Positions 30,272 through 58,905 of a stretch of DNA of 64,000 bases are shown here, piece by piece (position 1 is the first letter of the stretch; each line of letters opens with the position of its first letter). Source of the stretch: a virus (lineage: Duplodnaviria; Caudoviricetes). The translations under genes were made by a program, and so were the position numbers. The stretch is taken from the IMG/VR virus record IMGVR_UViG_3300034062_006701. The stretch is one strand, 5' to 3'. The notes beneath the pieces are model-generated. The model did not search any database, was not told where the DNA came from, and worked only from the letters and a program-made list of their open reading frames with translations.

Positions 30272-30300
30272 AGTATATTATACTACATATGCGTGATCAA
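30272..30300 (-). promoter_or_regulatory. Sigma70-type promoter (DNA polymerase)
   Basis: TTGATC-17-TATACT, 6 nt upstream of the GTG. Confidence 0.75.
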
Positions 30301-41400: not shown

Positions 41401-41808
41401 ATGAGAACATTTAAGGAATATACAAATAATCGACCTGTGCTAGGTGTAATCGAAACAATCGTTGTTGATGGTGTAGGGGAAGTCTTAGCTAAAATAGACA
41501 GCGGAAACGAAGCTCATAATGTCCTACATGGTGTAGATATACAGTATAACGGGGACAGTATTACCTTTAATACTATTAATAATAAGCAATTAACTCTTCA
41601 GAAGACCGGTGAAATCGATATTAATATCGGTAGCGGTAACATCGAAAAAAGACCGACTGTTAGTCTAAATTTTGAATTAAAAAATCAGCCCTACCGTGAT
41701 ATAACTTTTAGTATCGCAGATAGGGCTGATAATGAACAACAAGTGTTAATAGGTGAGCCATTTATTCGTAAAATAAATGCTCTTATCGATGTAAAGATAG
41801 AGAATTAA
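41401..41808 (+). CDS. Retropepsin-like aspartic protease (RimK-associated type)
   Basis: 'LAKIDSGN', 'RP.V', 'FSIADR', 'VLIG..F'; N-terminus MRTFKEY. Confidence 0.75.
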
Positions 41809-42458
41809 GTCTTTTTAATATCAGCAATAAAGTTGTAAAACTCAGCACGTGTTGCTGGGTCATCAAGGAAATCACCACTAAGTTTACTCGTCTTCATCTC
41901 ACATCCATCGTGCTTTACCCCACGTAGACAGGCACATGTATGTGTAGCACTAATTACCACAGCGACACCCATATTCTTCTCACATACCTCATTAATTGCG
42001 TCATGAATTTGAACTGTTAGACCTTCCTGTATTTGAGGTCTACGGGCATAAAACTCTACAATTCGATTAAGTTTCGAGAGACCGATAACACGACCGTCGC
42101 TTGATGGTATATATGCCACATGCGCACGACCGGTAAATGCGAGGTGATGGTGTGAGCACATCGATTTAACAGGTATACCGCCTTGAAACACCATTCCATC
42201 ATATCCGTTACTCGGGAACGATGTAATCTTTGGTGGTACATCAAAACAACCGGCAGCTAGATCATTTACAAATGCTTTTGCAACGCGCAGTGGCGTATTT
42301 GTACTATTAGGGTCATTACGCCAGTCAAAACCGAGCGCATCCAGATACGCTTCATACGCCTTAGCTGCGTTAGTAATTATAGCTTGCTTCTCTTCAGGAG
42401 AATGTGGGTGGTTACCGTTAGCAAATTTAAGTTTATACTCTTTTGTATATTCAGACAT
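41805..42458 (-). CDS. folE: GTP cyclohydrolase I
   Basis: 'NTPLRVAK', 'SMCSHH', 'GLSKLNRIV...RRPQIQE', 'H.C..LRG'; start moved to MSEY. Confidence 0.96.
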
Positions 42459-42464
42459 AACGTT

Positions 42465-42500
42465 ATTATACATGTACTGCAATCATTTTCAACATAAATA
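42465..42500. promoter_or_regulatory. Early promoter (folE, minus) back-to-back with a late promoter (plus)
   Basis: TTGAAA-16-TATAAT on the minus strand; TAAATA at 42495-42500 on the plus strand. Confidence 0.7.
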
Positions 42501-44056: not shown

Positions 44057-44695
44057 ATGAATTATCAGAGTACTAAACTAATTGAACTTGGATCCTGTGC
44101 ATTTAGACAATTTGGAGCTACCCACAGTCATTGTCATCTCGTTCATGGTTACCAGCTTAAGGCAAAATTCTATTTTGGATGTAGTGAGCTCGATAGTAAT
44201 AACTGGTCAGTTGATTTCGGCGGACTTAAACAACTTAAACAAATCCTCAACGATCAATTCGATCATACACTCTGCATTGCTGAAAATGATCCCTTACTTG
44301 AAGTCTTTCAACACTTACATAATCTAGGCGGGTGCAACTTAAAAATAATGTCTGGTGTAGGTATTGAGAAAACAGCTGAATGGTGCTTCAATGCTGCTTC
44401 ACAATTTCTTAAGAATGTATATGGTGATCGATGCTGGGTAGAGAAAGTTGAAGTATATGAGCATGAAAATAATTCCGCCATCTATTCAAAACCAACTTCA
44501 ATAGTCGCTCCAGAACATGTTCAAGCTATGACAACTCCTGTTTCTCGTGAAGAAAATACACCGGCACCTACAATTCCAGTGGAAACTACTCCAGAACAAC
44601 AAGTAACACCAAACCACCCTGTTAATGTAGGTAACAGTCGTGTAACGTCTGGTTATTCAGGTCTCTTTGATGGTATTAGTTGGGGTAGTAGATGA
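44057..44695 (+). CDS. queD: 6-carboxytetrahydropterin synthase with C-terminal extension
   Basis: 'HCHLVHGY', 'VDFGGLK', 'DH', 'E..AEW', 'VEVYEH..NSA'. Confidence 0.9.
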   Translation: MNYQSTKLIELGSCAFRQFGATHSHCHLVHGYQLKAKFYFGCSELDSNNWSVDFGGLKQLKQILNDQFDHTLCIAENDPLLEVFQHLHNLGGCNLKIMSGVGIEKTAEWCFNAASQFLKNVYGDRCWVEKVEVYEHENNSAIYSKPTSIVAPEHVQAMTTPVSREENTPAPTIPVETTPEQQVTPNHPVNVGNSRVTSGYSGLFDGISWGSR

Positions 44696-45102: not shown

Positions 45103-45910
45103 ATTCTGACGGACTGTATTCTTTTGTGTTAGTAGCAGGCATTATACCTTTAAACACGTGAGTCACGTATCTGCAGAGTTCAGAGCGTACGATATGATCT
45201 TCTGTTAATTCAACACAGAATACACCGTGCTCCTTAGCATCCTCATTATCAAACGCCTTATAAACTGTGTTAAACCCTGACTTACCATAAGGTAAGTCTG
45301 ATTGATCAGGATCACCACATATTATCATCTTACTAAATTCACCCATACGTGTGAATAGTGTCTGAAGTTCACGTACAGTTAAATTTTGACTCTCGTCGCA
45401 GCAAACAAACTTTACTGCAAAATGTAATCCACGTGCAAAGTTAATAGGGCATATTGTAATTCTGTTATCTTTGTGTAAACGGTGAATTTGAGGTTCGATA
45501 ATGAGCTCAGAGAACTTTTCATTAAACGGAGTCATATATACATTTACCTTTTCATTGATATCACCCGGTAAATATCCAAGCTTTGAATCAGAGCTCTCAA
45601 CAGCAGAGCGAACAAGTACAATATCAGACACCTTCTTCATATTAAGAAGCTGTAACCCGAGATACATTGATAGAATTGTCTTTGATGTACCGGCGGGTCC
45701 TTTGAGTAGCATAAGCTTTGTCTTCTTATCTAGGAATAAATTAATTATTTCCTTCTGCTTATCTGTCCAAGGAAGCTCTCGAACATTTAATGAGAAATCA
45801 ATTTTTTCTCTTTGTGCTACGTAGGGTGAAGTATCTTTTCCTACCTCTTTATCAGTAGGACTAGATGTGACAACAGCTGCGGCTTTCGCCGTGCGTTTTT
45901 GTTTTTTCAT
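45080..45910 (-). CDS. phoH: PhoH-like ATPase
   Basis: 'GPAGTSKT', 'LGYLPGD', 'RG', 'DESQN', 'GD..QSD', 'DHIVRS'. Confidence 0.93.
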   Translation of the reverse strand: MKKQKRTAKAAAVVTSSPTDKEVGKDTSPYVAQREKIDFSLNVRELPWTDKQKEIINLFLDKKTKLMLLKGPAGTSKTILSMYLGLQLLNMKKVSDIVLVRSAVESSDSKLGYLPGDINEKVNVYMTPFNEKFSELIIEPQIHRLHKDNRITICPINFARGLHFAVKFVCCDESQNLTVRELQTLFTRMGEFSKMIICGDPDQSDLPYGKSGFNTVYKAFDNEDAKEHGVFCVELTEDHIVRSELCRYVTHVFKGIMPATNTKEYSPSESKSRPKL

Positions 45911-45917
45911 CTACAAA

Positions 45918-45966
45918 TATTTAATCAAATTGTGATCTTGATTATCTGTATAAAGTATCATATTAT
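45918..45966. promoter_or_regulatory. Late promoter (phoH, minus) and early promoter (queE, plus)
   Basis: TAAATA at 45918-45923 (minus); TTGATT-17-TATTAT at 45938-45966 (plus). Confidence 0.7.
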
Positions 45967-45976
45967 ACATGCATAT

Positions 45977-46735
45977 ATGATTGATATTAATACTGAATCA
46001 CTATTTCTTTCAGACGATAAAGTATTCTATACTATTGAAGGAGAAGGTGAGTATATCGGCGTACCATCGGTTTTTATGCGTATGTCAATGTGTAATTTGA
46101 CGTGCATTGGATTTGCATCTGAAGACTCGCCTAACGGATGTGATTCATTTGTCTCCTGGTCCGTTAAAAACAAAATGACCTTTGAAGAAATCTTCCAATT
46201 AATGGAAGAGAATAACTACATCGATCATCTTAAGCATAATGCTATTCTAAAGCTCACCGGTGGTGAACCACTTATTCAGCAAAAGCAGCTAATTAAATTT
46301 ATTCACGCTTTTAATGAGAGATATAATTTTATTCCACGTATTGATTTTGAAACAAATGCAACGTTAATGCCTGACCCTGAATGGAGAGAGGAATTTAAAG
46401 CTACGTTTACAACTTCTCCAAAGCTCCGTTCAAACGGAGATCCTGAAGATAAGACGTATAAACCTGAGGTTCTTAAGTGGCATGTAAAGCATGGATCTGG
46501 GTTTAAGTTCGTCATTAATGTTGCAGAAGATATTGAAGAGATCTGGGAGAAGTATATTAAAGATAATAACAATATTAATGTACCTCTCAAGCGTGTGTGG
46601 TTTATGCCTTGTTGCGGCTCGAGGCAAGAGCATACTGAGAGATCCGCTGCAGTAGCGGAATATGCTAAAGCGATGCATGTGAATTTTAGCCCGCGATTGC
46701 AATTAGTGATCTGGGACAAAGCGCTACGTGTGTGA
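45977..46735 (+). CDS. queE: 7-carboxy-7-deazaguanine synthase (radical SAM)
   Basis: 'FYTIEGEG..IG.PSVF.R...CNLTC....CD', 'TGGEP', 'ETN', 'SPKL'; start moved to MIDIN. Confidence 0.92.
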   Translation: MIDINTESLFLSDDKVFYTIEGEGEYIGVPSVFMRMSMCNLTCIGFASEDSPNGCDSFVSWSVKNKMTFEEIFQLMEENNYIDHLKHNAILKLTGGEPLIQQKQLIKFIHAFNERYNFIPRIDFETNATLMPDPEWREEFKATFTTSPKLRSNGDPEDKTYKPEVLKWHVKHGSGFKFVINVAEDIEEIWEKYIKDNNNINVPLKRVWFMPCCGSRQEHTERSAAVAEYAKAMHVNFSPRLQLVIWDKALRV

Positions 46736-46771: not shown

Positions 46772-47527
46772 ATGAGAATAGCGATAAGCGGTAGTGCATG
46801 CCAGGGTAAGAGTACATTAATTGATGACATGATCAAAACATGGCCGATGTACAGTCGTTCCGCCGAGTCATATCGTAAAGCTATACGAGAAGAAAATATA
46901 CCACTTAACGAGAAAGTAACAAAAGATGGTCAGTGGCGCATTTTAAATTGTCTTATTGATGATATACAGAAAACATCTAGGGATGACAATATTTTATTTG
47001 ATCGTTGTGCTTTAGATAACATTGTATATTCTCTATGGTCTAATAGTAAAAAAGCTACAGATATAGATGATGAATTTATTAAGAAATGTATTCCTCTTGT
47101 ACAAGAGACGATGCACTCCCTTGATATAATATTCTTCACACCAATTACAAAATTTTCACCTATCCCGGTAGAGGCTCGTGAAACACGAAATGTAAATGAA
47201 GAATATATTAAAGAAATTGACAACATCTTTAAAGCAATATCTCATGGATACGCTAAGACTGGCGCATCTCCGTTTTTCCCTAAAGAGGATAGACCACCTA
47301 TTATTGAAGTATTTGGTGATAGAGAGCAAAGAATTGCAATGATGCAACTTTATATTGATAAAACAGGAGATATCGTATCTGATGAAAAAAGTGTGTTAAG
47401 CAATGAAAACATAGATCTCGTTGAGAAACTAATCAACGACCAAAAAGATGTGCAGCATGCTGAAGCTCAAGAAGAGAAATTTCGCTCTAGCATTATTAAA
47501 GCGAAAAATATAGAAGATATTAATTAA
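46772..47527 (+). CDS. P-loop nucleoside/nucleotide kinase-like protein (AAA_28-like)
   Basis: 'IAISGSACQGKSTL', 'FDRCALD.IVY'. Confidence 0.75.
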   Translation: MRIAISGSACQGKSTLIDDMIKTWPMYSRSAESYRKAIREENIPLNEKVTKDGQWRILNCLIDDIQKTSRDDNILFDRCALDNIVYSLWSNSKKATDIDDEFIKKCIPLVQETMHSLDIIFFTPITKFSPIPVEARETRNVNEEYIKEIDNIFKAISHGYAKTGASPFFPKEDRPPIIEVFGDREQRIAMMQLYIDKTGDIVSDEKSVLSNENIDLVEKLINDQKDVQHAEAQEEKFRSSIIKAKNIEDIN

Positions 47528-48270
47528 TACGTAATTAATACACGTACACCGAAGTTTGAAGATGCAGGTACGATCATCCCAGCATTTAGTACAAATGCAA
47601 TACTTCCGGTTGTTGCGCCAGGTGTACCGCTAATATTGGTAATAAAGGGTACGGTCGATAATGCAAATGCTAAGCTACTACCGTCACCGGGCATAATCGA
47701 AAATGAGCTAGCGTTTAGTCTGCTATTAACTTCGTTCGTGAAACCGGGTAAACCAGTCCAATTTATGGTACTAGATGCCGTTGCTCCTAGTGGTATGTTT
47801 ACTTGCGCGGTATAGTCAAAAATGTTTTTATATGTGGATTTTGTTGCAAGGCTTGCAGATGCAGCAGTTAACTGTGTATATAGAGATGTATATATAGGAT
47901 TACCTGTGAAGTCTGATACCGCTCTTGTAGCGCTTACAACAAGACCATTTACTATAGTGAAACTGTCATAATAATCATGTGTAGGGAACGGTGGGGTAAA
48001 GCCTGTCCGTCCGCCGGTAGTTGTAAACTGGGACGCAGATATTGACGGTGTCGTTAAACTACCAGTAAAAATAGCATTAGTACCAGTAAGAGTACCTGTA
48101 ACAGTAGCATTCCCGTTAATATCTGTTTTTACAACATTTAAATCTCTAAAGGAAATAATTTGTGTACCGTTATTTGTTTGTAATATAAAATCATCTGAAT
48201 CTACCGCTAACTGTGATGTAGGTAGATTTCTAATATTAACGGTTGTACTATTAGTAGGGTTGGTTGCCAT
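47524..48270 (-). CDS. Ser/Thr-rich late structural protein (fibre/decoration-like)
   Basis: TATAAATA 6 nt upstream; T/S/G/N-rich beta composition. Confidence 0.55.
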   Translation of the reverse strand: MATNPTNSTTVNIRNLPTSQLAVDSDDFILQTNNGTQIISFRDLNVVKTDINGNATVTGTLTGTNAIFTGSLTTPSISASQFTTTGGRTGFTPPFPTHDYYDSFTIVNGLVVSATRAVSDFTGNPIYTSLYTQLTAASASLATKSTYKNIFDYTAQVNIPLGATASSTINWTGLPGFTNEVNSRLNASSFSIMPGDGSSLAFALSTVPFITNISGTPGATTGSIAFVLNAGMIVPASSNFGVRVLITY

Positions 48271-48306
48271 TAAAGATATTTATAGTAATATATATGAATT
48301 AACCAT

Positions 48307-49176
48307 ATGGCCGCAAAAATAGGAGTTGGAATAATAACATGTAATAGACCCGCTTATTTAAAGGGGTTACTTGATTCAATCCCTCAGATATGTAATATCG
48401 ATGAGCTCATTATCGTTAATGATGGTACACCTTTGAGTAAAGATATAGCCTCAATAGGGGATGGATATGATTTCAGTCACGTAGCTTGGTTACAGAATAA
48501 TATAAATCTCGGTGTAGGTAAATCAAAAAATAAAGCTATAAAATACCTAATGGATAAAGAGTGTGACTATATCTTCCTTATTGAAGATGATATGATTATA
48601 CTCGATCCAACCGTTTTTCAACAATATATCAAAGCTAGTAAGCTAAGCGGTATACAGCACTTTAATTACGGCCCGGGATCACCTTTTAACCGCAAGCAAA
48701 AAATACAAAATTTTGATTTACATAACAGACATCTTCTTGATCAAAATACAGAACCGAATCCAAAAATTATAATTGACTACAAAGACTGTAAAGTCGCCCT
48801 ATATGAACATACGGTTGCAATGTTTTCTTTCTTTACAAGAGAAGTAATTGAAAAAGTCGGATATATCGACGAACAGTTTTATAATGCATGGGAGCACGTT
48901 GATCATACGTATTGTATTATTAAAGCAGGTTATCATCCACCGTTCTGGTGGTTTGCAGACCTAGCTAATAGCCATGAACTATTAACAGAAGCGCCAGGTG
49001 CAATAGATAATTCATCTATTGCCAATAAAACAGAACAATGGCAAAAAAATGTATATGGTGGCCGTGAATTATATCTCAAAAAACATGGACATTACCCGAA
49101 CCAGCCACCGTACACAACTAAAGAAGAAGTGATCAATACAATCAAACAAATTAAAAATAATTATGGTCAAAAATAG
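48307..49176 (+). CDS. GT2-like glycosyltransferase
   Basis: 'GIITCNRP..L..LL.S...IIVNDG...N.G....N...DYIFLIEDD...GYIDE.F...EHVD'. Confidence 0.88.
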   Translation: MAAKIGVGIITCNRPAYLKGLLDSIPQICNIDELIIVNDGTPLSKDIASIGDGYDFSHVAWLQNNINLGVGKSKNKAIKYLMDKECDYIFLIEDDMIILDPTVFQQYIKASKLSGIQHFNYGPGSPFNRKQKIQNFDLHNRHLLDQNTEPNPKIIIDYKDCKVALYEHTVAMFSFFTREVIEKVGYIDEQFYNAWEHVDHTYCIIKAGYHPPFWWFADLANSHELLTEAPGAIDNSSIANKTEQWQKNVYGGRELYLKKHGHYPNQPPYTTKEEVINTIKQIKNNYGQK

Positions 49177-49936
49177 CTGCATTTTTTATCTCGTCAACGA
49201 TAACCAGATTCATATAAAGAGGCTATATGATAGTCTAGAGTGTCTACAAAAAAACTTTTTAGCGGAGTTTCCATATCCCGTCGTTATTGGTCATGAAGGT
49301 ATCTCACAAAATATTATAGAAGGTATTAAGCAAAGACTTGACGTGCAGGTTGTTTTCTATAAAATTAATTTTAAAATACCAGATTACTCACAAGAAATTT
49401 TAAATCAAATACCTGAACGTTTTAAAGGACACTGGGATGAAAATGCTTTCTTTTCTATTGGATATAGACATATGTGCCGCTACTTTTCTGGTGAAATTTA
49501 TAAGGAGACTTTTTTTGAAAAAGTAAAGTATCTACTCCGTTTAGATTGTGATTCATATTTTACTAGTAAAGTTTCATATGATATCTTTCAGCGCATGGAA
49601 GATAACAAAGCTGTATACGGCACTGTAGGTAGAGACACGGATATGGAATACGTCGTCGAAGGCTTCAGTGATGCCTGTGAAGAGTTCTTTAAGAATAGTC
49701 CCGAGCAGTTAATTGAACCGACTGACATGTATCAGACACATTTCGACCTTACAGATGTTCAGTGGGTAAAAGATAGTGAGTATATGAAATTTTACGAATA
49801 TATTGATAAAACAGGCAACATTTATATTAAACGATGGGGCGATGCGGTAATTAAATTTCAAGGCATGTCTCATGTAACTCCCAGTAGAATTCACTTGTTT
49901 AGTGATCTACCATATAAACACGGAGGCGATTTATGA
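49163..49936 (+). CDS. GT15 (Kre2/Mnt1-like) mannosyltransferase-like protein
   Basis: 'YRHMCRYF.G', 'Y..R.D.DS', 'YEYID..G.IY..RWGDA'. Confidence 0.8.
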   Translation: MVKNSCIFYLVNDNQIHIKRLYDSLECLQKNFLAEFPYPVVIGHEGISQNIIEGIKQRLDVQVVFYKINFKIPDYSQEILNQIPERFKGHWDENAFFSIGYRHMCRYFSGEIYKETFFEKVKYLLRLDCDSYFTSKVSYDIFQRMEDNKAVYGTVGRDTDMEYVVEGFSDACEEFFKNSPEQLIEPTDMYQTHFDLTDVQWVKDSEYMKFYEYIDKTGNIYIKRWGDAVIKFQGMSHVTPSRIHLFSDLPYKHGGDL

Positions 49937-50694
49937 AAATAGCAATATTAGTACCATCAAGAGAAAGAATGAATAGAAGGCTTACCCTTCTGACATCAAT
50001 TATTACAACTGTCAGCGATATCAATAACGTCAATATATACTTTGGTGTTGATATGGATGACCCGACTCGTGAATTAATTTATAAAGTTTCAAAAGCTATT
50101 CCTTGTGTTAAGATCGTCGATATTGATAATAAGGGTGAGTTTATTGGTCTCGGAAAGATGTGGAATATTTGTACTGATAACTCCACAGAACAAATTATTT
50201 CTATGATTGGTGATGATATGGTATTTCGAACACCTAACTGGGATCTTGAAATTATTAAAGAATTTACAGAAAACTGCCCTGAAGATAAAATTAAGGCTAT
50301 TCACTGTAATGATGACTGTCATGGGGCAAAGCTTGCAGTAAATCTTTTTTGCCATAGAAAATATGCTGAAATTCTCGGTCGTTTTATGCGCGAAGAATTT
50401 AAGATCAACTGGGTTGATCAATGGATGCATCAAGTTTTTAGCGCCTTCGGTCGACTATCTTACCGTGGTGATATTATGATCGAACACCGTCATTGGGTAC
50501 TCGGTAAAGATAAACGCGATAAAACAGCTGAGAGAATGGCTGTAGCAGACGTTAATAAAATTAGCGATAAACTTTGGTTTGACTTAGTAGATGAGCGTAT
50601 CAAGGATGTTTGGAAGCTAGAGGATTATTTAAAGATGAAGGCTGACTGGTCTACAGTTGATGTCGAGCAAGCAACCCTAATTTATCAAAGATAA
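49933..50694 (+). CDS. GT-A glycosyltransferase-like protein
   Basis: 'ILVPSRER...D.DD...WN...MIGDDM...WD...W.D.W'. Confidence 0.75.
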   Translation: MKIAILVPSRERMNRRLTLLTSIITTVSDINNVNIYFGVDMDDPTRELIYKVSKAIPCVKIVDIDNKGEFIGLGKMWNICTDNSTEQIISMIGDDMVFRTPNWDLEIIKEFTENCPEDKIKAIHCNDDCHGAKLAVNLFCHRKYAEILGRFMREEFKINWVDQWMHQVFSAFGRLSYRGDIMIEHRHWVLGKDKRDKTAERMAVADVNKISDKLWFDLVDERIKDVWKLEDYLKMKADWSTVDVEQATLIYQR

Positions 50695-50702
50695 ACATTA
50701 CT

Positions 50703-51335
50703 ATGGGCGAGATAAATGAAAGCGATGAGTTCGGTAAAGTGATTATAGATGTTGTTAGACGATATAATCTGCAGAAGGTACTTGAAATCGGGTCCTGGGA
50801 CGGTACCGGGTCAACACAATGCTTTATAAAAGGTATGTCTGTCCTCGCAAGTCCTGATCTTACCTGTGTTGAAGTAAAAAGAGATAGATATGAAAAATTA
50901 GTTACAAATACACAAGCATATTCATGGGTAAAGTGTGTCAATCAGACGACTATTTCACTTAAAGCACTAATTGACAAAGATTTTGAATCTCTTTGGAATA
51001 GTACCTACTGTTGTATAAACAGCGATAAACCGACAGTAAGAGAATGGTTTGACCATGATATAGAGGAAATAACCAAGTATAACTACGGGTTTCTTGAAAC
51101 AGATCAACGTTTTTATGACGGTGTATTAATTGATGGGGGTGAGTTTTTTGGTTACAGTGAATATAAATTGGTGAAAGACAGAACTAATGTTTTATTTTTA
51201 GATGATTACTATAGCGCGTTTAAAAATAATCAATCTGCCCGAGAGCTCACAAAAGACCCTGAATGGGAAGTAGTTGCAGGTAATAGATATTGCCGTAACG
51301 GCTATGCTGTTTTTAAGCGTAGAAATTTTAAATGA
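50703..51335 (+). CDS. Class I SAM methyltransferase-like protein
   Basis: 'VLEIGSW.GTGST...VE', 'VLIDGGE'. Confidence 0.75.
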   Translation: MGEINESDEFGKVIIDVVRRYNLQKVLEIGSWDGTGSTQCFIKGMSVLASPDLTCVEVKRDRYEKLVTNTQAYSWVKCVNQTTISLKALIDKDFESLWNSTYCCINSDKPTVREWFDHDIEEITKYNYGFLETDQRFYDGVLIDGGEFFGYSEYKLVKDRTNVLFLDDYYSAFKNNQSARELTKDPEWEVVAGNRYCRNGYAVFKRRNFK

Positions 51336-52114
51336 ATAAGAAAGTAGTAGTCTGTGCAGCTGTAAGAAATATTCAGGACACAATTAAGCCTGTATTTGAT
51401 AATATTAATCGACTATCAGGTATATTCGAGGATGTGAGATGTATTCTCGTTGAATCAGACAGTTACGACAATACTCTTGCTTCCATTAAGCATTATAAAC
51501 CATATCTTAATTGTACGCTTGATGTTTATAGTTTTGGAAACATGGAACGTGTAGTTCCTAACAGAATGCAACGCATATGTAGAGCTAGAAATTATTATCT
51601 AGATATCGTGCAGCAGGAGTACAGTGATTACGACTACCTATTAGTTATTGACTTTAATGAGACAAATATCGAGCCTTACGATCTCGATCTTATAAAAAGT
51701 AATTTTGAATTATCCGTTGATTGGGATATGGTGTGTGCAAATCAAGAACTACTTTATTACGACCTTTATGCTCTAAGACATCAAGAATGGATGCCATTTA
51801 ACTGCTGGAACGCTATAGGCAATAGACCATCTTTTATGTCCTACGAGACTGCGCATAACATATATGTAAAGTCGAGATTTTTAAACATTAAGAAAACGCA
51901 TCCACCGATAAAGGTAATGTCTGCCTTCGGTGGGTCAGCGTTTATAAAAATTAGTAGTATCGGTCAAGCGCGACATAGAGCTGTTGACGATGGTAATGAA
52001 GAGGAGTGTGAGTGGGTATCTTTTTGCAAAGCTTTGCAGAATGTGTACATTAATCCAATGTTTATAAATATGCGTCGTCAAAGTCGACATGCAATGATTG
52101 CAAATACAAAATAA
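51332..52114 (+). CDS. GT-A glycosyltransferase (CAP59/Anp1-like)
   Basis: 'VESDS.DNT', 'RI..ARN.YL', 'YLLVID', 'YYDLYALR', 'SAFGG', 'CE.VSF'. Confidence 0.65.
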   Translation: MNKKVVVCAAVRNIQDTIKPVFDNINRLSGIFEDVRCILVESDSYDNTLASIKHYKPYLNCTLDVYSFGNMERVVPNRMQRICRARNYYLDIVQQEYSDYDYLLVIDFNETNIEPYDLDLIKSNFELSVDWDMVCANQELLYYDLYALRHQEWMPFNCWNAIGNRPSFMSYETAHNIYVKSRFLNIKKTHPPIKVMSAFGGSAFIKISSIGQARHRAVDDGNEEECEWVSFCKALQNVYINPMFINMRRQSRHAMIANTK

Positions 52115-52115
52115 T

Positions 52116-52904
52116 ATGAAACGCGTTGCCTTTACTATTATCTTTAACGGAATTAAACACCTACAGCATAACAATTATTATAATAAGTTAAGCTCTTGCG
52201 TAGATCTTTGGGTAATAATAGAAGGTTTATCTCTACCCAACGGCTCAACCTCATGGTGTAAAGAAATAGACGATGATTTCCACAATAACTTTTTATCAAG
52301 AGATGGAACGACAGAATTTCTAAACAAAAACCGTAAAGAAAATGTAATCGTTATAAGACCTGAGAATAGACCGTGGCTGAGTAAAGATGAACAGGTAAAT
52401 GCAGGTATAAGATGTATAAAAGAAAGATACACAGAAGCGATGCTATGGCAGATAGATATCGATGAACAATGGACAGAAGAGAGTATGTCATCTGCAGAAA
52501 ATGAACTTATAAAACATAATGGTAAAACAGGTTGTTTTAGATGTGACTATTTTGTCGGTCCTAATCAACAAGTGTTCGGTGAATGGGGTGAAAATACACG
52601 TGACCCCTATAGAAGATTGTGGCACTGGCAGAGCGAGGATTTTGAGACACATGAACCACCAAAGCTTCAAGGTAATAATGGTCCGAGATTTCTACTTCCA
52701 CAGCGCTTTAAACACTATTCATACTATTTTGAAGAAGATGTAATTTTTAAAGAACGGTATTATTCTTCATATGAAGGTTTGCATAGACGGTGGCTCGATG
52801 TACAAAAAAACACCGGTACTTTACCTGTAAGAAGTCTTTTGGGTGATAATGTCTGGTGGAGTAATACAAATACTATTATACAATATACGGGTCATGCTTG
52901 TTGA
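52116..52904 (+). CDS. GT-A glycosyltransferase-like protein
   Basis: 'S.DGTTEFL', 'WQIDIDEQW' (DxD); start moved to MKRVAF. Confidence 0.6.
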   Translation: MKRVAFTIIFNGIKHLQHNNYYNKLSSCVDLWVIIEGLSLPNGSTSWCKEIDDDFHNNFLSRDGTTEFLNKNRKENVIVIRPENRPWLSKDEQVNAGIRCIKERYTEAMLWQIDIDEQWTEESMSSAENELIKHNGKTGCFRCDYFVGPNQQVFGEWGENTRDPYRRLWHWQSEDFETHEPPKLQGNNGPRFLLPQRFKHYSYYFEEDVIFKERYYSSYEGLHRRWLDVQKNTGTLPVRSLLGDNVWWSNTNTIIQYTGHAC

Positions 52905-53724
52905 TGGTAATAATTTTATATCACACTTTCTTAAAAATAAGAAACCCTTTGCTGCTGGAAAAATCGGTGTCACGGAACTAAACTTATTGTACTGCTACGA
53001 AAACCTTAAAAATGGTGGTCAGCTCTTACCTCATCTTAAACACGAGGTAGAAAATATTGCCGGTCTATATCCGTACAACGAGACGACGGTTGCAACCTTT
53101 GCAGAGATGTTTTTATCTCTCTTACCAAATATTGATCTTATTCCGGTATGGAATCGAGTTATACCAACGTTTGAGAAACATATTCTTGATACATATTGCA
53201 AGAACAGTTACAGGACAACACTTGCGCAGCTTGAACCATATTTTGATGATAGACCATGGACAAACTACCTTCAAGGTAAGAAAGTGTTAGTGTTTAGTCC
53301 GTTTGCTAATTCTATTGAGAGAAACTATAAGCATCTTGATAAAATATGGAATAAAAAAATAACCAATAACTTTGAGTTAGAAGTCGTAAAGTATCCGTTT
53401 GCTATACCTATTAGCACAAAACCATCTCATGTGACCTCTGATAGTATATACAAGAAATATCTAGATATTTTACATGAAAAAGTATTTGATGTCGGTATAT
53501 TCGGAACAGGATATACTTCCTTACTATATACACTTGAGTGTAAGAAGATGGGTAGAGCTGGTATACATCTAGGTGGATCAACTCAAATTTTATTCGGTAT
53601 AAAAGGGCAGCGATGGAAAGAAATCGATAGGTTTAATACTGTGTTCAATGAACATTGGACTGAACCAGTGGAAGAAGAAAGACCGTCGAAGCTAACATTA
53701 GTCGAAGGAGGATGTTACTGGTGA
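52894..53724 (+). CDS. Putative glycosyltransferase (GT-D/DUF1792-like)
   Basis: 'KIGVTE', 'KKVLVFSPF', 'FDVGIFG.G', 'IHLGG' inside the GT operon; start moved to MLVDG. Confidence 0.45.
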   Translation: MLVDGNNFISHFLKNKKPFAAGKIGVTELNLLYCYENLKNGGQLLPHLKHEVENIAGLYPYNETTVATFAEMFLSLLPNIDLIPVWNRVIPTFEKHILDTYCKNSYRTTLAQLEPYFDDRPWTNYLQGKKVLVFSPFANSIERNYKHLDKIWNKKITNNFELEVVKYPFAIPISTKPSHVTSDSIYKKYLDILHEKVFDVGIFGTGYTSLLYTLECKKMGRAGIHLGGSTQILFGIKGQRWKEIDRFNTVFNEHWTEPVEEERPSKLTLVEGGCYW

Positions 53725-54485
53725 GTATTTTCGTAGAGTACGATCAATGGAGTAGGATGGGAAATAGAATGTTTCAATATGCTCTTGGTTATATACTATC
53801 ACAAGAAAAAAAAACTGTACTATATGCAGATGGTATACCGAATTTTGACATATCCTCGACAAGAAGCGGAATGACACCAAAAGACCCAATCTACACAAAA
53901 AGCCACGGTAACAATTATTTAAAATACAATGAACTACTCAATACCGAAAGAGATATTGTTGTAAATTCGTACGTACAGCGAGCACAATATTATATACCGT
54001 ATAGAGATATGTTAAAAGCAATCCTCGGTGTAAAAAATGAACCATGTATCAATTGTGATAGACTTGTAGTGCATATCCGCGAAACTGATTATACCCAAAT
54101 CAACTGCTTCCTTGGCTATGAATATTATCACAACCTCATTAAAGAATCAGGATACAGTGATATAATTATTGTAACAGATAATTCAAAGTGCGATACTGTA
54201 CAGCGGTTAATGGGTGATGGTTGTACTTTAAATACATGTGGTTACGTTGATAAATTTGAACACATATGTGATAATAGGGCGATGATGGATTTTATGACAC
54301 TTTTAAAGAGTGAGAATATTGCATTATCACAATCATCATTCTCTTGGTGGGCTGCCTTTCTCGGTCAACATGAAAAGATAATTTTTCCTTATACAGAACA
54401 GAAGTCTATGTGGCCATTGAATCCTGGTAAAGATGATATAAACTTATATTTTGACTTCGGATCGTCACAAAAATTTATAAAATGA
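53721..54485 (+). CDS. GT11 alpha-1,2-fucosyltransferase-like protein
   Basis: 'RMGNRMFQYA', 'VHIRETDY', 'DFMTL', 'SSFSWWAAFL'; GTGA overlap and GGAGG upstream. Confidence 0.85.
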   Translation: MSIFVEYDQWSRMGNRMFQYALGYILSQEKKTVLYADGIPNFDISSTRSGMTPKDPIYTKSHGNNYLKYNELLNTERDIVVNSYVQRAQYYIPYRDMLKAILGVKNEPCINCDRLVVHIRETDYTQINCFLGYEYYHNLIKESGYSDIIIVTDNSKCDTVQRLMGDGCTLNTCGYVDKFEHICDNRAMMDFMTLLKSENIALSQSSFSWWAAFLGQHEKIIFPYTEQKSMWPLNPGKDDINLYFDFGSSQKFIK

Positions 54486-55234
54486 ACGCAAAGAAATTTT
54501 CAGACTTAATGCTGCATAGCGGTGGATATAAGGGCAGAACAAAAATTGAAAATTGGAATATTCTAGAAGACCTATATAACCACATACAATTGTATACACA
54601 AAAGGAGCAGCGTATACCTAAGATAATACATCAAATATGGCTCGGTAGCGAAGTACCGACGTCGTTAAGACAACATATGGACTCAATTCAGCGGGTGAAT
54701 CTCGACTACAAATATATATTATGGACAGATTTGGAGGCTGATAAGTTCGATTTTAAAAATAAAGACTTATATAATAACTGCAAAAATTACGGTCAAAAAT
54801 CTGATATATTGCGATACGCTATACTTAACGAGTTTGGTGGTGTATATCTTGATACGGATTTCGTAGGATGTAAGTCTTTTGATGAGTTACTGAATCTTGA
54901 TTTTTTTACTGGCGTTTCTTATGATAAAGAACCGACCATGTTTAATGGGTTGATAGGATCCACGCCAGGTAACGCTATTATAACAGCGCTGAATGATATA
55001 AAAGAAGTAAGAGATGGTGACGGAATGGAAGTTATAAAAAGTACAGGACCGTGGTATCTTACAGATGTTGTATATAATAATATTATGAACGTAGAAAGAA
55101 TTGCAGTAATGCCCTTAGAATATTTTTACCCGTATCCAAATTTTAATCATGATAAGGTACTCGGCGACGATTACACAAAATACATCACCGAAAAAACTAT
55201 TTGTGTACACCTATGGCACTCACGATGGAACTAA
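54482..55234 (+). CDS. GT32 (OCH1-like DxD) glycosyltransferase
   Basis: 'IPKIIHQIW', 'SDILRY..L...GGVYLDTD', 'TGPW.LT', 'HLW'. Confidence 0.9.
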   Translation: MNAKKFSDLMLHSGGYKGRTKIENWNILEDLYNHIQLYTQKEQRIPKIIHQIWLGSEVPTSLRQHMDSIQRVNLDYKYILWTDLEADKFDFKNKDLYNNCKNYGQKSDILRYAILNEFGGVYLDTDFVGCKSFDELLNLDFFTGVSYDKEPTMFNGLIGSTPGNAIITALNDIKEVRDGDGMEVIKSTGPWYLTDVVYNNIMNVERIAVMPLEYFYPYPNFNHDKVLGDDYTKYITEKTICVHLWHSRWN

Positions 55235-56091
55235 GTCAATTTATCTCTGGCGAGCGGTTCCAGGCACTTGCAGATATAAGTTTTATACCACTGGGCAGCG
55301 GTAACGGTGAGAGCGAGTGCAGCTTTGTACAAGAGCAGCAACGCAATAACAATTATAGTGTATTTTACTATGATAATAATACAATAGCATTACCTGATTT
55401 AGAAGATGTTAAGACTATTTTTGTAAACACATGGACACTTGATAAATTTTTTAGTATTATTTTTCCTTTATTATTAGGTAAATACACATTTATATCTCAT
55501 AACTCAGATCTTGGATTTGAAGAAAAACATGCATCGTTTTTAGACAGCGAAAAAGTGATAAAGTGGTTTAGTCAAAACGCGTATATTGAACACAGTAAAT
55601 TAATTTCTCTACCAATCGGCCTAGGTAATCAACAATACCCGCACGGTAATATCGCGTTAATAAAACATATAATCGACAAAAATTTAAGTAAAGAGCTTCT
55701 TGTGTTTAAAAATTTTGACTGTAATACAAATTACGGTGAACGGAATAATATTAATCAAATCACTACAAGAAACAATATACACATGTGGCCTCATCACAGT
55801 CAAGAAGAGTATTTTATGAGACTTGCACAAAGTGCATTTGTTATTAGTCCTCCAGGTAATGGGGTCGATTGCCACCGCATATGGGAGAGTCTTTATTTTA
55901 AAACAATACCTATTGTAAGGAATCATCCATGCTTTAATCAGTATAGGGAACTTCCAATTCTATTTATAGATGATTGGAATGACGTAACAGAAGATTTTCT
56001 GCGTGTGAAATTAAAGAAATTTAAAGACAAACCGATACAACAGTTGTACCTAGATTACTGGAAAAATCTAATATATAATATAACCATATGA
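55225..56091 (+). CDS. Exostosin (GT47)-like glycosyltransferase
   Basis: 'SAFVISPPGNG.DCHRIWESL...IPIV...LPILFIDDW'; start moved to MELSQ. Confidence 0.75.
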   Translation: MELSQFISGERFQALADISFIPLGSGNGESECSFVQEQQRNNNYSVFYYDNNTIALPDLEDVKTIFVNTWTLDKFFSIIFPLLLGKYTFISHNSDLGFEEKHASFLDSEKVIKWFSQNAYIEHSKLISLPIGLGNQQYPHGNIALIKHIIDKNLSKELLVFKNFDCNTNYGERNNINQITTRNNIHMWPHHSQEEYFMRLAQSAFVISPPGNGVDCHRIWESLYFKTIPIVRNHPCFNQYRELPILFIDDWNDVTEDFLRVKLKKFKDKPIQQLYLDYWKNLIYNITI

Positions 56092-56729
56092 ACTCAAACT
56101 TCATGACGAATTGGGTTAGAGATAACTTAACCAAGCAGTCTATTATTGTAGAAGCAGGAATGTATGATGGAATTGATACCTGTATATTCGCAGATATAGC
56201 GACAGAGGGTAAGGTATATGGTTTCGAGCCAGTACCGGAGTGCTTTGCTTTATGTAAGCAATTAATTGGTGATAGATCAAATGTTGAAATTACCGAAGCT
56301 GCGCTAGCAGATAAAACAGGAACAAGTAATATTCATATAAGTGATCGTTTCGGTAAGCATTGGGCATCAGCATCTCTTTTAGCTCCAAAAAAACATCTAG
56401 ATGCATATACAGATATTACATTTAAGACACAAATCGAAATACCTACTATTAATCTTGATGAATGGTATAATGAAAAGCAAATTGGGATCATTGATCTTTT
56501 ATGGCTTGACACTCAAGGATTTGAATATTATATTCTCAAAAATGCACCGAGGGCGCTTTCAAATACGAGATATTTATATACAGAGGTTGCATATGTTGAA
56601 ACGTATGCAGACTGTAAATTATATAATGAATACAGGGAGTTTTTAGAAAAATCGGGATTTGTGGTTATTAATGAGGAAAAAGAAATGTACGAAGGCAATA
56701 TGCTACTTAAAAATATCAATTTAAATTAA
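56088..56729 (+). CDS. FkbM-family methyltransferase
   Basis: 'VEAG..DG.DT', 'GFEP', 'LD', 'LLWLDTQGFE', 'YTEV'. Confidence 0.9.
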   Translation: MNSNFMTNWVRDNLTKQSIIVEAGMYDGIDTCIFADIATEGKVYGFEPVPECFALCKQLIGDRSNVEITEAALADKTGTSNIHISDRFGKHWASASLLAPKKHLDAYTDITFKTQIEIPTINLDEWYNEKQIGIIDLLWLDTQGFEYYILKNAPRALSNTRYLYTEVAYVETYADCKLYNEYREFLEKSGFVVINEEKEMYEGNMLLKNINLN

Positions 56730-56735
56730 AAAACT

Positions 56736-57437
56736 ATGTTAGTACTCTCCCATGATAAAATTATTGAGTTGTATGAGCAATTCGTTAAAGCAAATTACAA
56801 CACTGACTTTACTGAAAGATATAACCCTTTACCGGTCCATAAAAATAATAAAAAATGGAGATGGGAAGGTAAGGATTTTCCACGTGTCATATCGCTCTTA
56901 GAGTTTGAGAGATATATTAACAAATATAATTTTCAAATTAATGATCTGTTAATTTTTAATGGTGAGGATGATCCTGAGATTGAATACCTTGATGACAGAA
57001 TCAAGACACTTCATAATTTTGATTATATGTCGGATACAGTAAATTATGATTTACACCAATTAAAGCTCCCACGTACAGATTATGATTTTGTTTGCCTGCA
57101 CCAAACGCTCGAACATATCTATAACCCATATCAATGTCTAACTAATATACGAAACCATATGAAAGAAGGCGGGTACCTCTATATTAATGTACCAGCGTGT
57201 AACGCACCACATAGCGAGCCATTTCACCACTTTACGGGATTTACACCTATGGGTCTCGTTGCAGTATCATATCAAGCTGGCTTCAAGGTATGTGAGGCTG
57301 GTCAATGGGGCAATACAGAATACCTCGTTAAATTATGGACGCGTAACCCGGGGTGGTCAGATTATAGCCAGTTAGCTAACCCTGGTATAAATGAAATACA
57401 TAATCCTGTTATAACCTGGGTTCTTTTACAAAAATAA
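56736..57437 (+). CDS. Class I SAM methyltransferase-like protein
   Basis: 'YDFV...QTLEHI.NP...L...MKEGG.L.I.VP...H.EP..F..FTP.GL'. Confidence 0.75.
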   Translation: MLVLSHDKIIELYEQFVKANYNTDFTERYNPLPVHKNNKKWRWEGKDFPRVISLLEFERYINKYNFQINDLLIFNGEDDPEIEYLDDRIKTLHNFDYMSDTVNYDLHQLKLPRTDYDFVCLHQTLEHIYNPYQCLTNIRNHMKEGGYLYINVPACNAPHSEPFHHFTGFTPMGLVAVSYQAGFKVCEAGQWGNTEYLVKLWTRNPGWSDYSQLANPGINEIHNPVITWVLLQK

Positions 57438-57441
57438 AAAT

Positions 57442-58287
57442 ATGTACGGTCTTTTATGTGTTGATGATATTTCTGTAGTGGGTCACAGCTTGTTTAATAA
57501 CTTTAGATTGGCTCTATATAATTTCTTTGATAAAAATAACATTAAAGATGTTAATAATGTAACTGATCTTCATAATGTAACACATTTAATTATTGTAGAT
57601 GAGCATCACATCCCTTGTGTAAATATATGGAAGAACGATATCTTTATAAATGAATTAAATACACGAAATATTAAAACGGTTGTGTTTAATTTTGAAAAGA
57701 TATTTAGCTCGAGTTTTCCTTGGAATGCCGATCATCAGCGAAAGCTCGAAACAATTAGAAATCTTGTACAGTTTGTAAGTGACATCGATGATGCTACAAT
57801 ACTAAACCAAACAACGATAAATAAGCAGTATCTATCAAGGGATACTTGTTTAGGTGTAAGTGAAATTAAAAAAATCGATAGAATACTGTTCATCGGTCAG
57901 TTAAATGAATACTATCCTACGAGACGTCAGCTGTTAGATAGTGCTAGTAGATCAGGACTACCTGTCGATATCATTATTACAGATCGTAAGCTTTCATATA
58001 ATGAATTTTTATTAAAACTAAATCAGTATAAATTTATTTTAAATCCTCTTGGTACAGGTAAATTTTTAAACTTACGCTTTTACGAGGCTTTAAAGCTTAG
58101 CTGTATACCGATACAACAAATAACTCCAGAGATGGTTTCTTGGTATCCTGAGCTAACTCAATCAATCAACTTTATTGATTTTAGCGAAATTACAGAAGAT
58201 ACATTGTCACGTCAAGTCACCCGCGATGAATTCTATCTAGAAGATTATTTTTCTATGATAGACTTGAATCAATATTTTAAATATTGA
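57442..58287 (+). CDS. GT-B/exostosin-like glycosyltransferase
   Basis: 'LFIGQL..Y..RR', 'YKFILNPLG...RFYEAL...CIPI'. Confidence 0.65.
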   Translation: MYGLLCVDDISVVGHSLFNNFRLALYNFFDKNNIKDVNNVTDLHNVTHLIIVDEHHIPCVNIWKNDIFINELNTRNIKTVVFNFEKIFSSSFPWNADHQRKLETIRNLVQFVSDIDDATILNQTTINKQYLSRDTCLGVSEIKKIDRILFIGQLNEYYPTRRQLLDSASRSGLPVDIIITDRKLSYNEFLLKLNQYKFILNPLGTGKFLNLRFYEALKLSCIPIQQITPEMVSWYPELTQSINFIDFSEITEDTLSRQVTRDEFYLEDYFSMIDLNQYFKY

Positions 58288-58311
58288 TTATTAAAGCGTA
58301 TACTATATAAT
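58284..58311 (+). promoter_or_regulatory. Sigma70-type promoter (DUF366-gp62-GroES operon)
   Basis: TTGATT-16-TATAAT, 6 nt upstream of the ATG. Confidence 0.75.
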
Positions 58312-58317
58312 GACCAT

Positions 58318-58905
58318 ATGATTATTAATGTACCTATCTACGACGGTGATCTTATTCACACCCGCTTTGCTTACAAGCATTTCCGTAAAAATACTCTCCC
58401 TATTGGTAATATTGTAGCCTTTAGGGCACCTATGAAGGTTGAGGCGGAAGGCATGATCGATCATGAGGATCTTATCAGTGCAGATTACATCTATAGTGAC
58501 GATGCTATTAATTTTTGTTGGGAGATCCCGAACCTGTGCCCGTTCGGTGCTGTTGCATTTCAGCGCCTATTAAACACACAGATAGCAAATATTCTTAGTA
58601 GTAAATATCTAAACACACCGATTGAGGTTGATGGTGATGACCTTATGGTACATAAGGAACACAACCAAGGCGGCGTAACTCAAATGACAGGTAAATGTAG
58701 TGTTAGTATTACCTATTCAAAGAATAATGTCGCTCTCGGTCATACCGGTATTAATATAACTGCTGGTAAGAAAGCGCCGGCTTTTGCCTTTTCTACTAAC
58801 CTGACTGACGAACAGGCGACTAATTTTATGCAGGATGTTATTAACCTGTTTTATGCAATGAATGATGATATTTTTATTCAAACTAGTAAGCTCACCGTTG
58901 CCTGA
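58318..58905 (+). CDS. DUF366-like protein (biotin/lipoate ligase-like fold)
   Basis: 'IVAFR.PM.VE...D.ED', 'S.DAINF..EIP', 'FQRL', 'GDDL', 'K.SVSI', 'H.GINI'. Confidence 0.7.
   Translation: MIINVPIYDGDLIHTRFAYKHFRKNTLPIGNIVAFRAPMKVEAEGMIDHEDLISADYIYSDDAINFCWEIPNLCPFGAVAFQRLLNTQIANILSSKYLNTPIEVDGDDLMVHKEHNQGGVTQMTGKCSVSITYSKNNVALGHTGINITAGKKAPAFAFSTNLTDEQATNFMQDVINLFYAMNDDIFIQTSKLTVA

Follow-up and report, generated by a model that had tools for sequence, protein, structure and literature searches.

The DNA examined here, IMG/VR record IMGVR_UViG_3300034062_006701, is a 64,000-nucleotide (nt) stretch of viral sequence (Duplodnaviria; Caudoviricetes), the whole of which is referred to below as the window. 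Positions 48307 to 58287 are filled by 13 co-oriented open reading frames (ORFs), 10 of which are assigned to glycosyltransferases (GTs) and three to methyltransferases. The cluster is a mosaic island that belongs to a whole clade of phages, in which a conserved inner block is joined to a variable 3' part. Judging from the sequences, we have fair confidence that soluble Leloir-type GTs and methyltransferases encoded here would assemble a methylated hetero-oligosaccharide, step by step, in the cytoplasm. A protein of the phage particle is the acceptor that we tentatively place first, at a little less than an even chance.

The contig derives from a distant, uncultured T4-like myovirus, in agreement with an earlier note on this DNA, which had described a tailed phage. 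Genes were recognized for a sheath, TerL, a gp41-type helicase, a family B polymerase, gp32, a UvsX-like protein and a gp20 portal. TerL is at most 40% identical to that of any deposited phage.

Layout and assignment of the 13 genes

The genes, named g1 to g13 in order (Table 1), are tightly packed, with overlaps of 4-14 nt and gaps of 1-8 nt. From g1 to g13 the successive junctions measure -14, -4, +8, -4, +1, -11, -13, -4, -10, -4, +6 and +4 nt, given the likely true starts of g6 (52116), g7 (52894) and g10 (55225), each being the first ATG past the preceding stop. All 13 reading frames are intact and are conserved in synteny across many phage contigs. A 19-residue hydrophobic window at the level of a membrane segment occurs in none of the 13 proteins, no polytopic membrane protein is encoded anywhere in the window, and no flippase, polymerase or sugar-nucleotide gene was found within its 64 kb. 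The earlier note had reported this close packing (overlaps, or gaps of at most 8 nt), the lack of transmembrane segments and of genes for a flippase, a polymerase or nucleoside diphosphate sugar synthesis, and the enzyme families; these observations all hold, the families being supported by Pfam, PHROG, Atlas, profile and fold evidence that covers every gene.

Table 1. Positions in the window of the cluster genes and of the other features discussed
Feature	Position	Strand	Assignment	Supporting matches
g1	48307-49176	+	GT2-family GT-A glycosyltransferase	Pfam PF00535, 1.6e-7, 31.8 bits (cut-off 23.3); GT family phrog_2456, 3.9e-27
g2	49163-49936	+	GT15, Kre2/Mnt1-type alpha-1,2-mannosyltransferase fold; catalytic domain only	Pfam PF01793 (GT15), 1.6e-32, 113.6 bits (cut-off 25), profile positions 55-323 of 325
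g3	49933-50694	+	GT-A-like glycosyltransferase	phage GT family phrog_14945, 1.9e-24
g4	50703-51335	+	probable class I S-adenosylmethionine (SAM) methyltransferase	motif EIGSWDG; two orthologues match Methyltransf_24, 0.0096
g5	51332-52114	+	CAP59/Anp1-like GT-A glycosyltransferase	29/45 homologues match CAP59_mtransfer, 2/45 match Anp1
g6	52116-52904	+	GT-A glycosyltransferase	DID motif, invariant
g7	52894-53724	+	GT-D-like glycosyltransferase	Atlas features point to PF22882 clusters; two orthologues match PF22882, 2.2e-4
g8	53712-54485	+	GT11-like (fucosyltransferase family) glycosyltransferase	Pfam PF01531, 3e-4 (below cut-off); phage GT family phrog_2644, 2.9e-11
g9	54482-55234	+	GT32-type DXD glycosyltransferase; variable part of island	Pfam Gly_transf_sug, 3.6e-13; Caps_synth, 1.5e-8; DTD at residue 124
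g10	55225-56091	+	RXYLT1/GT47-like glycosyltransferase; variable part of island	Pfam RXYLT1_C, 6.7e-8
g11	56088-56729	+	FkbM methyltransferase	Pfam PF05050, 1.5e-20; phrog_8156, 7.2e-26
g12	56736-57437	+	class I SAM methyltransferase	Methyltransf_23, 8.3e-9; Methyltransf_11, 1.8e-7
g13	57442-58287	+	RXYLT1/GT47-like glycosyltransferase, distant g10 paralogue	Atlas features; L002 orthologue matches RXYLT1_C, 0.0037
Predicted cluster promoter	48264-48291	+	sigma70-type, TTGCCA-16 nt-TAATAT, 15 nt upstream of g1 start	
Fiber-like gene	47524-48270	-	small Ser/Thr-rich modular protein, 248 amino acids (aa); divergent, late	
Predicted late promoter of fiber-like gene	48277-48284		TATAAATA, 6 nt upstream of ATG	
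Left border	46772-47527	+	AAA_28/thymidylate-kinase-like P-loop protein; in this position in all relatives	Pfam AAA_28; phrog_2107
Right border (here and in L002)	58318-58905	+	DUF366 protein; own early-type promoter	Pfam PF04017, 6.9e-21
FolE	41805-42482	-	preQ0 pathway	
QueD/PTPS	44057-44695		preQ0 pathway	
QueE-like	45899-46735		preQ0 pathway; radical SAM enzyme	best NCBIfam matches are QueE models, far below cut-off
QueC	25345-26043		preQ0 pathway	
GT in replication block	23055-23735		Glyco_tranf_2_5 protein; overlaps class II glutamine amidotransferase gene (pair 23055-24418)	
GT in replication block	30297-31514		405-aa PHROG glycosyltransferase between polymerase and SbcC-like genes	

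Each of the 13 calls has some tool support, which is strong for g2 and weakest for g4. Among the GTs, seven have GT-A-type family or fold matches, one is GT-D-like and two are GT47/RXYLT1-like. By sequence, g2 is a member of CAZy family GT15 that scores above the curated Pfam cut-off, and its profile matches Kre2/Mnt1 (PDB 1s4n) at 7.8e-40 and also Ktr4. In the alignment with Ktr4, GYRHMCRY of g2 lies opposite SYHNMCRF and YKH opposite YHH; g2 retains the YRHMCR motif and the C-terminal His, and the E of Ktr4 LEPN is replaced by D in its LDCD. We take the aligned residues (the YxxMCRF block, the acidic metal-binding residue and the C-terminal His) to have catalytic roles. Golgi GT15 enzymes are type II membrane proteins with an N-terminal anchor and a stem. 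In contrast, the 257-aa g2 protein has neither of these, begins at the catalytic domain and is free of hydrophobic segments.

The most conserved gene of the cluster is g3 (71-87% identity, with an invariant GDD). In a tblastn search of deposited phages, the only g3 relatives found were distant ones in Streptomyces phages and in Pelagibacter phage HTVC008M, where they are labeled as glycosyltransferases. In HTVC008M (125017-132312, L011), the g3 homologue heads a small group with a methyltransferase, a Nol-like carbamoyltransferase and a UDP-glucose dehydrogenase.

Structural models were informative for g5 and g6. The AlphaFold2 model of g5 (predicted local distance difference test score, pLDDT, 96.8) has a GT-A fold, and its best fold matches were COLGALT1 at 1e-9 and Mnn9 at a template-modeling score of 0.62; the g5 analyses took in 1798 representatives. 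The g5 family is large and includes some bacterial members, such as one in Nostoc at ~36% identity. The g6 model (pLDDT 84) also has a GT-A fold, with Foldseek matches to SunS (5.8e-6), TarP, TarS and WrtF; its nearest Atlas clusters are viral, and a minority of them carry GT2.

The g4 protein is probably a class I SAM methyltransferase, the weakest assignment of the 13; it gave no Pfam or PDB sequence match of its own. Profile searches of g3, g4, g6 and g7 against PDB sequences yielded nothing meaningful, and an NCBIfam scan of g4, g5, g13 and the fiber-like, DUF366 and AAA_28 proteins gave no matches. The paralogy of g13 and g10 comes from an hhalign comparison (E 0.0017) over a C-terminal nucleotide-binding motif. 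The same program found no relation between g4 and g11, between g5 and g6, or between g5 and family A7, which takes its slot in relatives.

A mosaic island with a conserved inner block

Scanning IMG/VR with g2 returned 10 loci. Contig look-ups added L012 and L013, which belong to the same clade, and, from a T4-like lineage that is less closely related, L019 (relatives are cited by locus number). Cluster genes are syntenic in the 10 IMG/VR loci at 40-87% amino acid identity, and the conserved inner block of g1, g2, g3, g4, g6, g7 and g8 ranges from 41 to 87%. The island begins with g1 in all relatives (61-75% identical in the 10 loci). At L008 (2656-4134) the g1 homologue is a 492-aa fusion protein whose added C-terminal part resembles the FkbM methyltransferase g11 (24% identity, 2e-5), a natural GT-methyltransferase fusion that can be likened to the architecture of chlorovirus A064R.

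Variation is seen at several places across 12 loci. The slot between g4 and g6 holds g5 in the window and an unrelated family of ~235 aa in relatives, in which a GT9-like N-terminal motif can be made out by eye; g5 itself has no orthologue in the IMG/VR relative loci and is lineage-specific. Four loci carry extra genes between g2 and g3. In the 3' part, g9-g13 and other genes, such as a GT90 gene in L013, are combined in mosaic fashion, and in L006 even the middle block of the island has been replaced. Such a conserved core with a variable periphery fits an exposed glycan under diversifying selection.

Sugar-nucleotide enzymes are encoded inside some of the islands. They comprise HAD and NTP_transferase domains in L012, GDP-mannose-dehydratase-type dehydratase/epimerase pairs and a UDP-galactopyranose mutase in L019, and DegT with epimerases in L021. 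With such genes present in some relatives and missing from the 64 kb, the set in the window, which had been called self-contained, is not so and must draw on nucleotide sugars made by the host.

The order FolE, QueD, PhoH, QueE-like, AAA_28, island is kept in all same-clade loci that reach far enough. On the right, the DUF366 protein is 73% identical in L002, where it likewise lies directly 3' of the g13 orthologue. The DUF366 family is known mainly from archaea. A literature search on its function yielded only papers on DUF3669.

Promoters and predicted timing

Early and late genes of this phage differ in what precedes their starts. Late genes carry (T)ATAAATA 5-7 nt upstream; among them are the sheath gene, three other virion genes, PhoH, AAA_28 and the fiber-like gene. 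Early genes, such as those for the polymerase, the helicase at 60449 and DUF366 (TTGATT-16-TATAAT, with 6 nt between it and the ATG), have a TTGACA-like element, a spacer of 16-18 nt and TATAAT near the start. The TATAAT of early starts lies ~6-9 nt upstream and is often followed by (A/G)ACCAT-ATG, which suggests that transcripts have very short leaders or none.

By these marks the cluster appears to have a sigma70-type, early promoter rather than the late motif. TAAATA at late-gene distance was found at none of the 13 cluster starts. The g1 homologue of L002 has a perfect TTGACA-17-TATAAT 5 nt upstream of its ATG, and that of L008 has TTGCCA. In L006 and L009, AAA_28 abuts g1 on the same strand and bears an early-type promoter. 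Within the cluster, g11 has a second TATAAT 8 nt upstream of its ATG, a possible internal promoter. Neither motif is enriched window-wide (12 found versus 12.8 expected for the T4 late consensus TATAAATA, which carries information only where it lies 5-7 nt ahead of a start, and 79 versus 81.6 for the sigma70 pattern). The promoter calls therefore rest on position and on conservation in relatives.

Early expression would be compatible with a late virion target, since the GTs of chlorovirus PBCV-1 are soluble, early-expressed enzymes that act in the cytoplasm on capsid protein (PMC5408694).

Virus-rich enzyme families

The relatives of g2 number 56, all metagenomic and on contigs of up to 220 kb. 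A tblastn search of 50,697 deposited phage records gave no g2 match. Among prokaryotes, g2 relatives turned up in just five of 185,579 species genomes (one genome per species) in a pattern-based scan that may overlook kin, three from Methanoperedens and two from the candidate phyla radiation (CPR), at 30-35% identity. These CPR genomes belong to Minisyncoccia/Paceibacterota and, with the Methanoperedens bins, make up L014-L018.

Most of the Atlas clusters nearest to g6, g7 and g13 are viral, giant viruses among them, and giant-virus proteins are present in those of g7 and g13. From such sequence relationships, the enzyme families look like virus-resident lineages rather than recent copies of a host envelope locus.

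A modular fiber gene beside the island

Divergent from g1 lies the fiber-like gene, whose product has the highest share of Ser and Thr (28%) among the tested ORFs of the window. The proteins encoded at this position in L001, L008, L013, L002 and L005 keep its first ~45 residues but differ beyond them; the L002 and L005 counterparts match phage tail and tail-fiber families. A database search returned 48 relatives of two classes, those homologous over the full length and those that share only the N-terminal ~145 residues and have a different C-terminus.

Modeling supports an intertwined trimer for this protein. The predicted trimer scored 0.81 against 0.00 for the best control, separate runs shared at least 83% of contacts, and pLDDT was at least 71; the score mark applied is reached by 20 of 30 true pairs and by one of 23 single chains. 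The slot beside g1 is occupied by a fiber gene here and in L001, L002, L005, L008 and L013. Three further loci that were picked by the fiber alone (L020-L022) all have it between AAA_28 and a divergent GT island, the content of which differs among them. The protein is a candidate acceptor for the glycan, or simply a co-located host-recognition gene, and the link between fiber and island is suggestive.

A possible pathway and its acceptor

In the pathway that we propose, the 13 genes would form one early-transcribed operon of soluble Leloir-type GTs and SAM methyltransferases. Sugars would be added singly in the cytoplasm of the infected cell from host-made nucleotide sugars, with GDP-mannose for g2 and GDP-fucose for g8 probably among the donors. 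Some of the sugars would then be O-methylated to give, in an order of steps that is our conjecture, a hetero-oligosaccharide of up to ~10 residues. Its inner part, common to the clade, would be the work of g1-g4 and g6-g8, and a strain-specific outer part would come from the gene in the variable slot, here g5, and from the mosaic genes of the 3' part, here g9-g13. The acceptor would most likely be a phage virion protein, one candidate being the adjacent Ser/Thr-rich, putatively trimeric fiber. The particle would thereby gain a glycan coat, as in chloroviruses, mimiviruses and some mycobacteriophages.

A virion protein is ranked first because of the virus-resident families, the relatives that act on protein-linked glycans, the pattern of core and periphery, and the candidate fiber next door. 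The solved or characterized relatives in question, by their entry names, are Kre2/Mnt1, the SunS peptide S-glycosyltransferase, COLGALT1 and Mnn9. GT-D enzymes act on serine-rich adhesins, and RXYLT1 acts on dystroglycan.

A bolder version of this proposal, possible but doubtful in our estimation, extends it to the whole clade. In it, phages of a freshwater jumbo T4-like lineage would decorate their own particle (fiber or capsid) with an O-methylated hetero-oligosaccharide of the giant-virus type, built in the cytoplasm of the bacterium. The Golgi-type families involved (GT15, CAP59/Anp1-like, GT32, GT47/RXYLT1, GT11 and GT-D) would have evolved within viruses, and the conserved core with its swappable outer part would produce "glyco-serotypes" that vary between co-existing strains.

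Several observations weigh against a virion target. The earlier note had inferred a glycan on virion proteins (or DNA), and for virion proteins genome position does not bear this out; the cluster lies outside the structural operon, among the FolE, QueD, PhoH, QueE-like and P-loop genes, and its promoter is of the early type. A sigma70-type promoter fits host take-over or nucleic acid modification at least as well. L006, L007, L009 and L010 have the island without the fiber gene, and a search for co-variation between fiber type and island content was negative (L022 combines a window-type fiber with an L020-type island). The fiber link may thus be mere co-location in a hypervariable region, and Ser/Thr richness is common in fibers. 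Published readings of similar islands, likewise made without experiments, favor modification of host O-chains (PMC7029224).

Remodeling of the host envelope is the competing explanation that survives best, and we regard it as unlikely but serious. The soluble GTs would act at the inner face of the membrane on undecaprenyl-linked intermediates of host O-antigen, capsule or S-layer, and the initiating enzyme, the flippase or ATP-binding cassette (ABC) transporter and the ligase of the host would see to export. Such an early change of the surface would exclude superinfecting phages or keep progeny off debris, and an early-type promoter suits a take-over function of this kind. The lack of membrane proteins had been taken by the earlier note as an argument against a host surface-glycan route, which does not follow. 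O-antigen GTs are usually peripheral and generally lack membrane segments, and the steps of initiation, flipping and ligation could be left by a lytic phage to the enzymes of the host.

The bacterial kin of g5 in Nostoc also favor envelope remodeling, although the families are mostly viral or eukaryote-like and not close copies of bacterial envelope genes. An island joined to a host-recognition fiber in a hypervariable region is like the host recognition cluster of pelagimyophages, in which the GTs were read as O-chain modifiers (PMC7029224), and the GT sets of cyanomyophages have been given the same reading (PMC12801897). However, 10 GTs are far above the needs of known seroconversion, and an inner block conserved across phages at 40-87% identity would require a host acceptor that is equally conserved. 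Moreover, beyond the missing flippase and polymerase, no initiating phosphoglycosyltransferase, ligase or transporter was found in the 64 kb or in the Pfam tables of annotated relatives.

It is improbable that the glycan is destined for some other acceptor, such as host cytoplasmic proteins, a lipid or a small molecule, or that it is a free or secreted methylated oligosaccharide. The sequence defines no acceptor, g9 has, in its DXD region, a further match to the protein-glucosylating domain of TcdA/TcdB (5e-10), and g6 resembles peptide S-glycosyltransferases. Nevertheless, no exporter, lipid-carrier enzyme or peptide precursor gene was recognized in or beside the island, and a conserved multi-step pathway with a variable outer part would be more typical of surface-exposed glycoconjugates.

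Hypermodification of DNA, with the glycan attached to a modified phage base such as a 7-deazaguanine derivative, seems very improbable. It gains some appeal from a complete set of preQ0 pathway genes (FolE, QueD, QueE-like and QueC), which are dispersed over the window and which the early-type cluster adjoins. Phage GTs can place mono- to trisaccharides on 5-hydroxymethylcytosine, but known DNA glycans have no more than three sugars (bioRxiv 10.1101/2023.12.21.572611), compared with 10 GTs here, and packaging would be difficult with a glycan of ~10 sugars attached to a common base. No cytosine methyltransferase/dioxygenase (5mYOX) or dCMP/dUMP hydroxymethylase was found among the cluster and its scanned neighbors, which make up part of the genome. 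The two other GTs of the window, located in the replication block, are better candidates for a role of this type.

Finally, the idea of an artefact, in which a host lipopolysaccharide (LPS) locus was mis-assembled into a phage contig or the genes have decayed, is contradicted by the intact frames and by synteny in many phage contigs, and mis-assembly is excluded for practical purposes because contigs from independent runs bridge both the left junction between fiber and g1 (48051-49837) and the right junction between g13 and DUF366 (57125-58418) and because GC content is even between cluster and flanks. Neither degenerate genes nor a misplaced LPS locus, two of the outcomes by which the earlier note would have been overturned, were encountered.

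The 10-kb stretch recurs in lake-water and freshwater metagenomes dated 2016-2024, and one 58-kb contig covers 44000-62281 with zero differences. A megablast search with the 10 kb returned no match among deposited phages. No RNA run was listed as containing the 10 kb or g2-g3. Contigs from two lake runs (X8 and X10) match up to 48722, within g1, and then continue into common unrelated sequence; other contigs begin to match at 56316, within g11, after common unrelated sequence. This suggests that a co-existing strain carries other DNA in place of the island section that runs between g1 and g11.

Comparison with known glycosylation systems

Hypervariable GT islands beside fibers, including the host recognition cluster, have been described in pelagimyophages (PMC7029224) and in cyanomyophages (PMC12801897), and cyanophage S-SCSM2R has 13 GTs (PMC12801897). 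Thus, to call this kind of locus largely uncharacterized, as the earlier note did, was an overstatement. The present island shares with these clusters a T4-like aquatic myovirus as its bearer and a non-syntenic mosaic of fibers and many GTs, with sugar-nucleotide genes in some members and a modular fiber gene in the slot adjacent to the hypervariable part. Position, family content and lineage all differ. The published clusters lie in the structural region, between VrlC and the neck gene gp14, whereas this one extends from the P-loop AAA_28 gene to DUF366 and the helicase and adjoins queuosine-precursor genes, with the portal gene ~4 kb downstream. GT15, CAP59-like, GT-D-like and RXYLT1-like enzymes are present here, in contrast to mainly GT8 in pelagimyophages, and the phages form a freshwater clade with larger genomes, separate from both pelagimyophages and cyanomyophages. 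What is new here is the clade-wide mosaic island with a conserved core, its early-type promoter, and the adjoining late modular fiber that is modeled as a trimer.

In its mode of action, the cluster would most resemble the virus-encoded, cytoplasmic glycosylation of the chlorovirus capsid (PBCV-1 A064R and A111/114R) and of mimivirus fibrils (PMC5408694, PMC7826918, PMC9614988). Soluble GTs with no signal peptide or membrane segment, methyltransferase activity and eukaryote-like GT families are shared, and the analogy with giant viruses that had been drawn earlier is fair given the behavior of the PBCV-1 enzymes. In chloroviruses and mimiviruses early genes serve a late structural target; for the present cluster an early-type promoter is predicted. 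The giant viruses also differ in having eukaryotic hosts, solved glycan structures, and genes that are scattered or fused into multidomain proteins instead of a 13-gene operon.

Among tailed phages with GTs of their own, the mycobacteriophages Che8, Corndog and Myrna glycosylate capsid and tail-tube subunits, according to the account of Freeman et al. (2023) cited in PMC12619734. Their cassettes have two to four genes in or beside the structural genes and serve phages of Actinobacteria, whereas here there are 13 genes outside the structural operon with a predicted early promoter. Late co-expression with a head or tail operon, which would mark a cassette of the mycobacteriophage type, has no counterpart here beyond the one small late fiber gene that is adjacent. 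A tblastn search of deposited phages with g2 and g3 gave no mycobacteriophage match, so that for these two genes homology to the Che8 and Corndog enzymes was not found.

Bacteria also glycosylate proteins in the cytoplasm. In the GtfA/B-Gtf3-dGT1 system for serine-rich-repeat adhesins and in flagellin islands, soluble GTs extend a glycan on a Ser/Thr-rich protein, and both a GT-D-type enzyme and FkbM-type methyltransferases occur in bacterial islands for protein O-glycosylation. Apart from the phage setting, the present cluster differs in that no initiating enzyme of the GtfA/B or Maf type was recognized here. O-antigen and capsule loci of the Wzx/Wzy- or ABC-transporter-dependent types have initiating, export, chain-length or ligase genes and sugar-nucleotide genes, of which the window has none. 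Phage clusters for sugar hypermodification of DNA combine a base-activating enzyme with few GTs and one to three sugars, in contrast to the 10 GTs found here with no such enzyme among the scanned neighbors.

Implications for phage glycobiology

Several parts of this system invite biochemical work. The group in the cultured pelagimyophage HTVC008M is a possible cultivable model for such islands. The g2 protein would be a soluble GT15 enzyme from a bacterial virus that could be assayed directly. Whichever acceptor is used, the conserved eight-gene core with its variable periphery is a defined target for heterologous expression.

If the glycan is placed on the host surface, no phage seroconversion system known so far would come near this one in size. 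If instead it is carried by the particle, glycosylated virions would cease to be a peculiarity of a handful of mycobacteriophages. Virion glycosylation would become a complex, strain-variable trait of abundant lake phages whose hosts are probably Gram-negative, and it would bear on adsorption, grazing, particle stability and host range. Shared enzyme families rich in viral members would then also tie phage glycobiology to the glycobiology of giant viruses.

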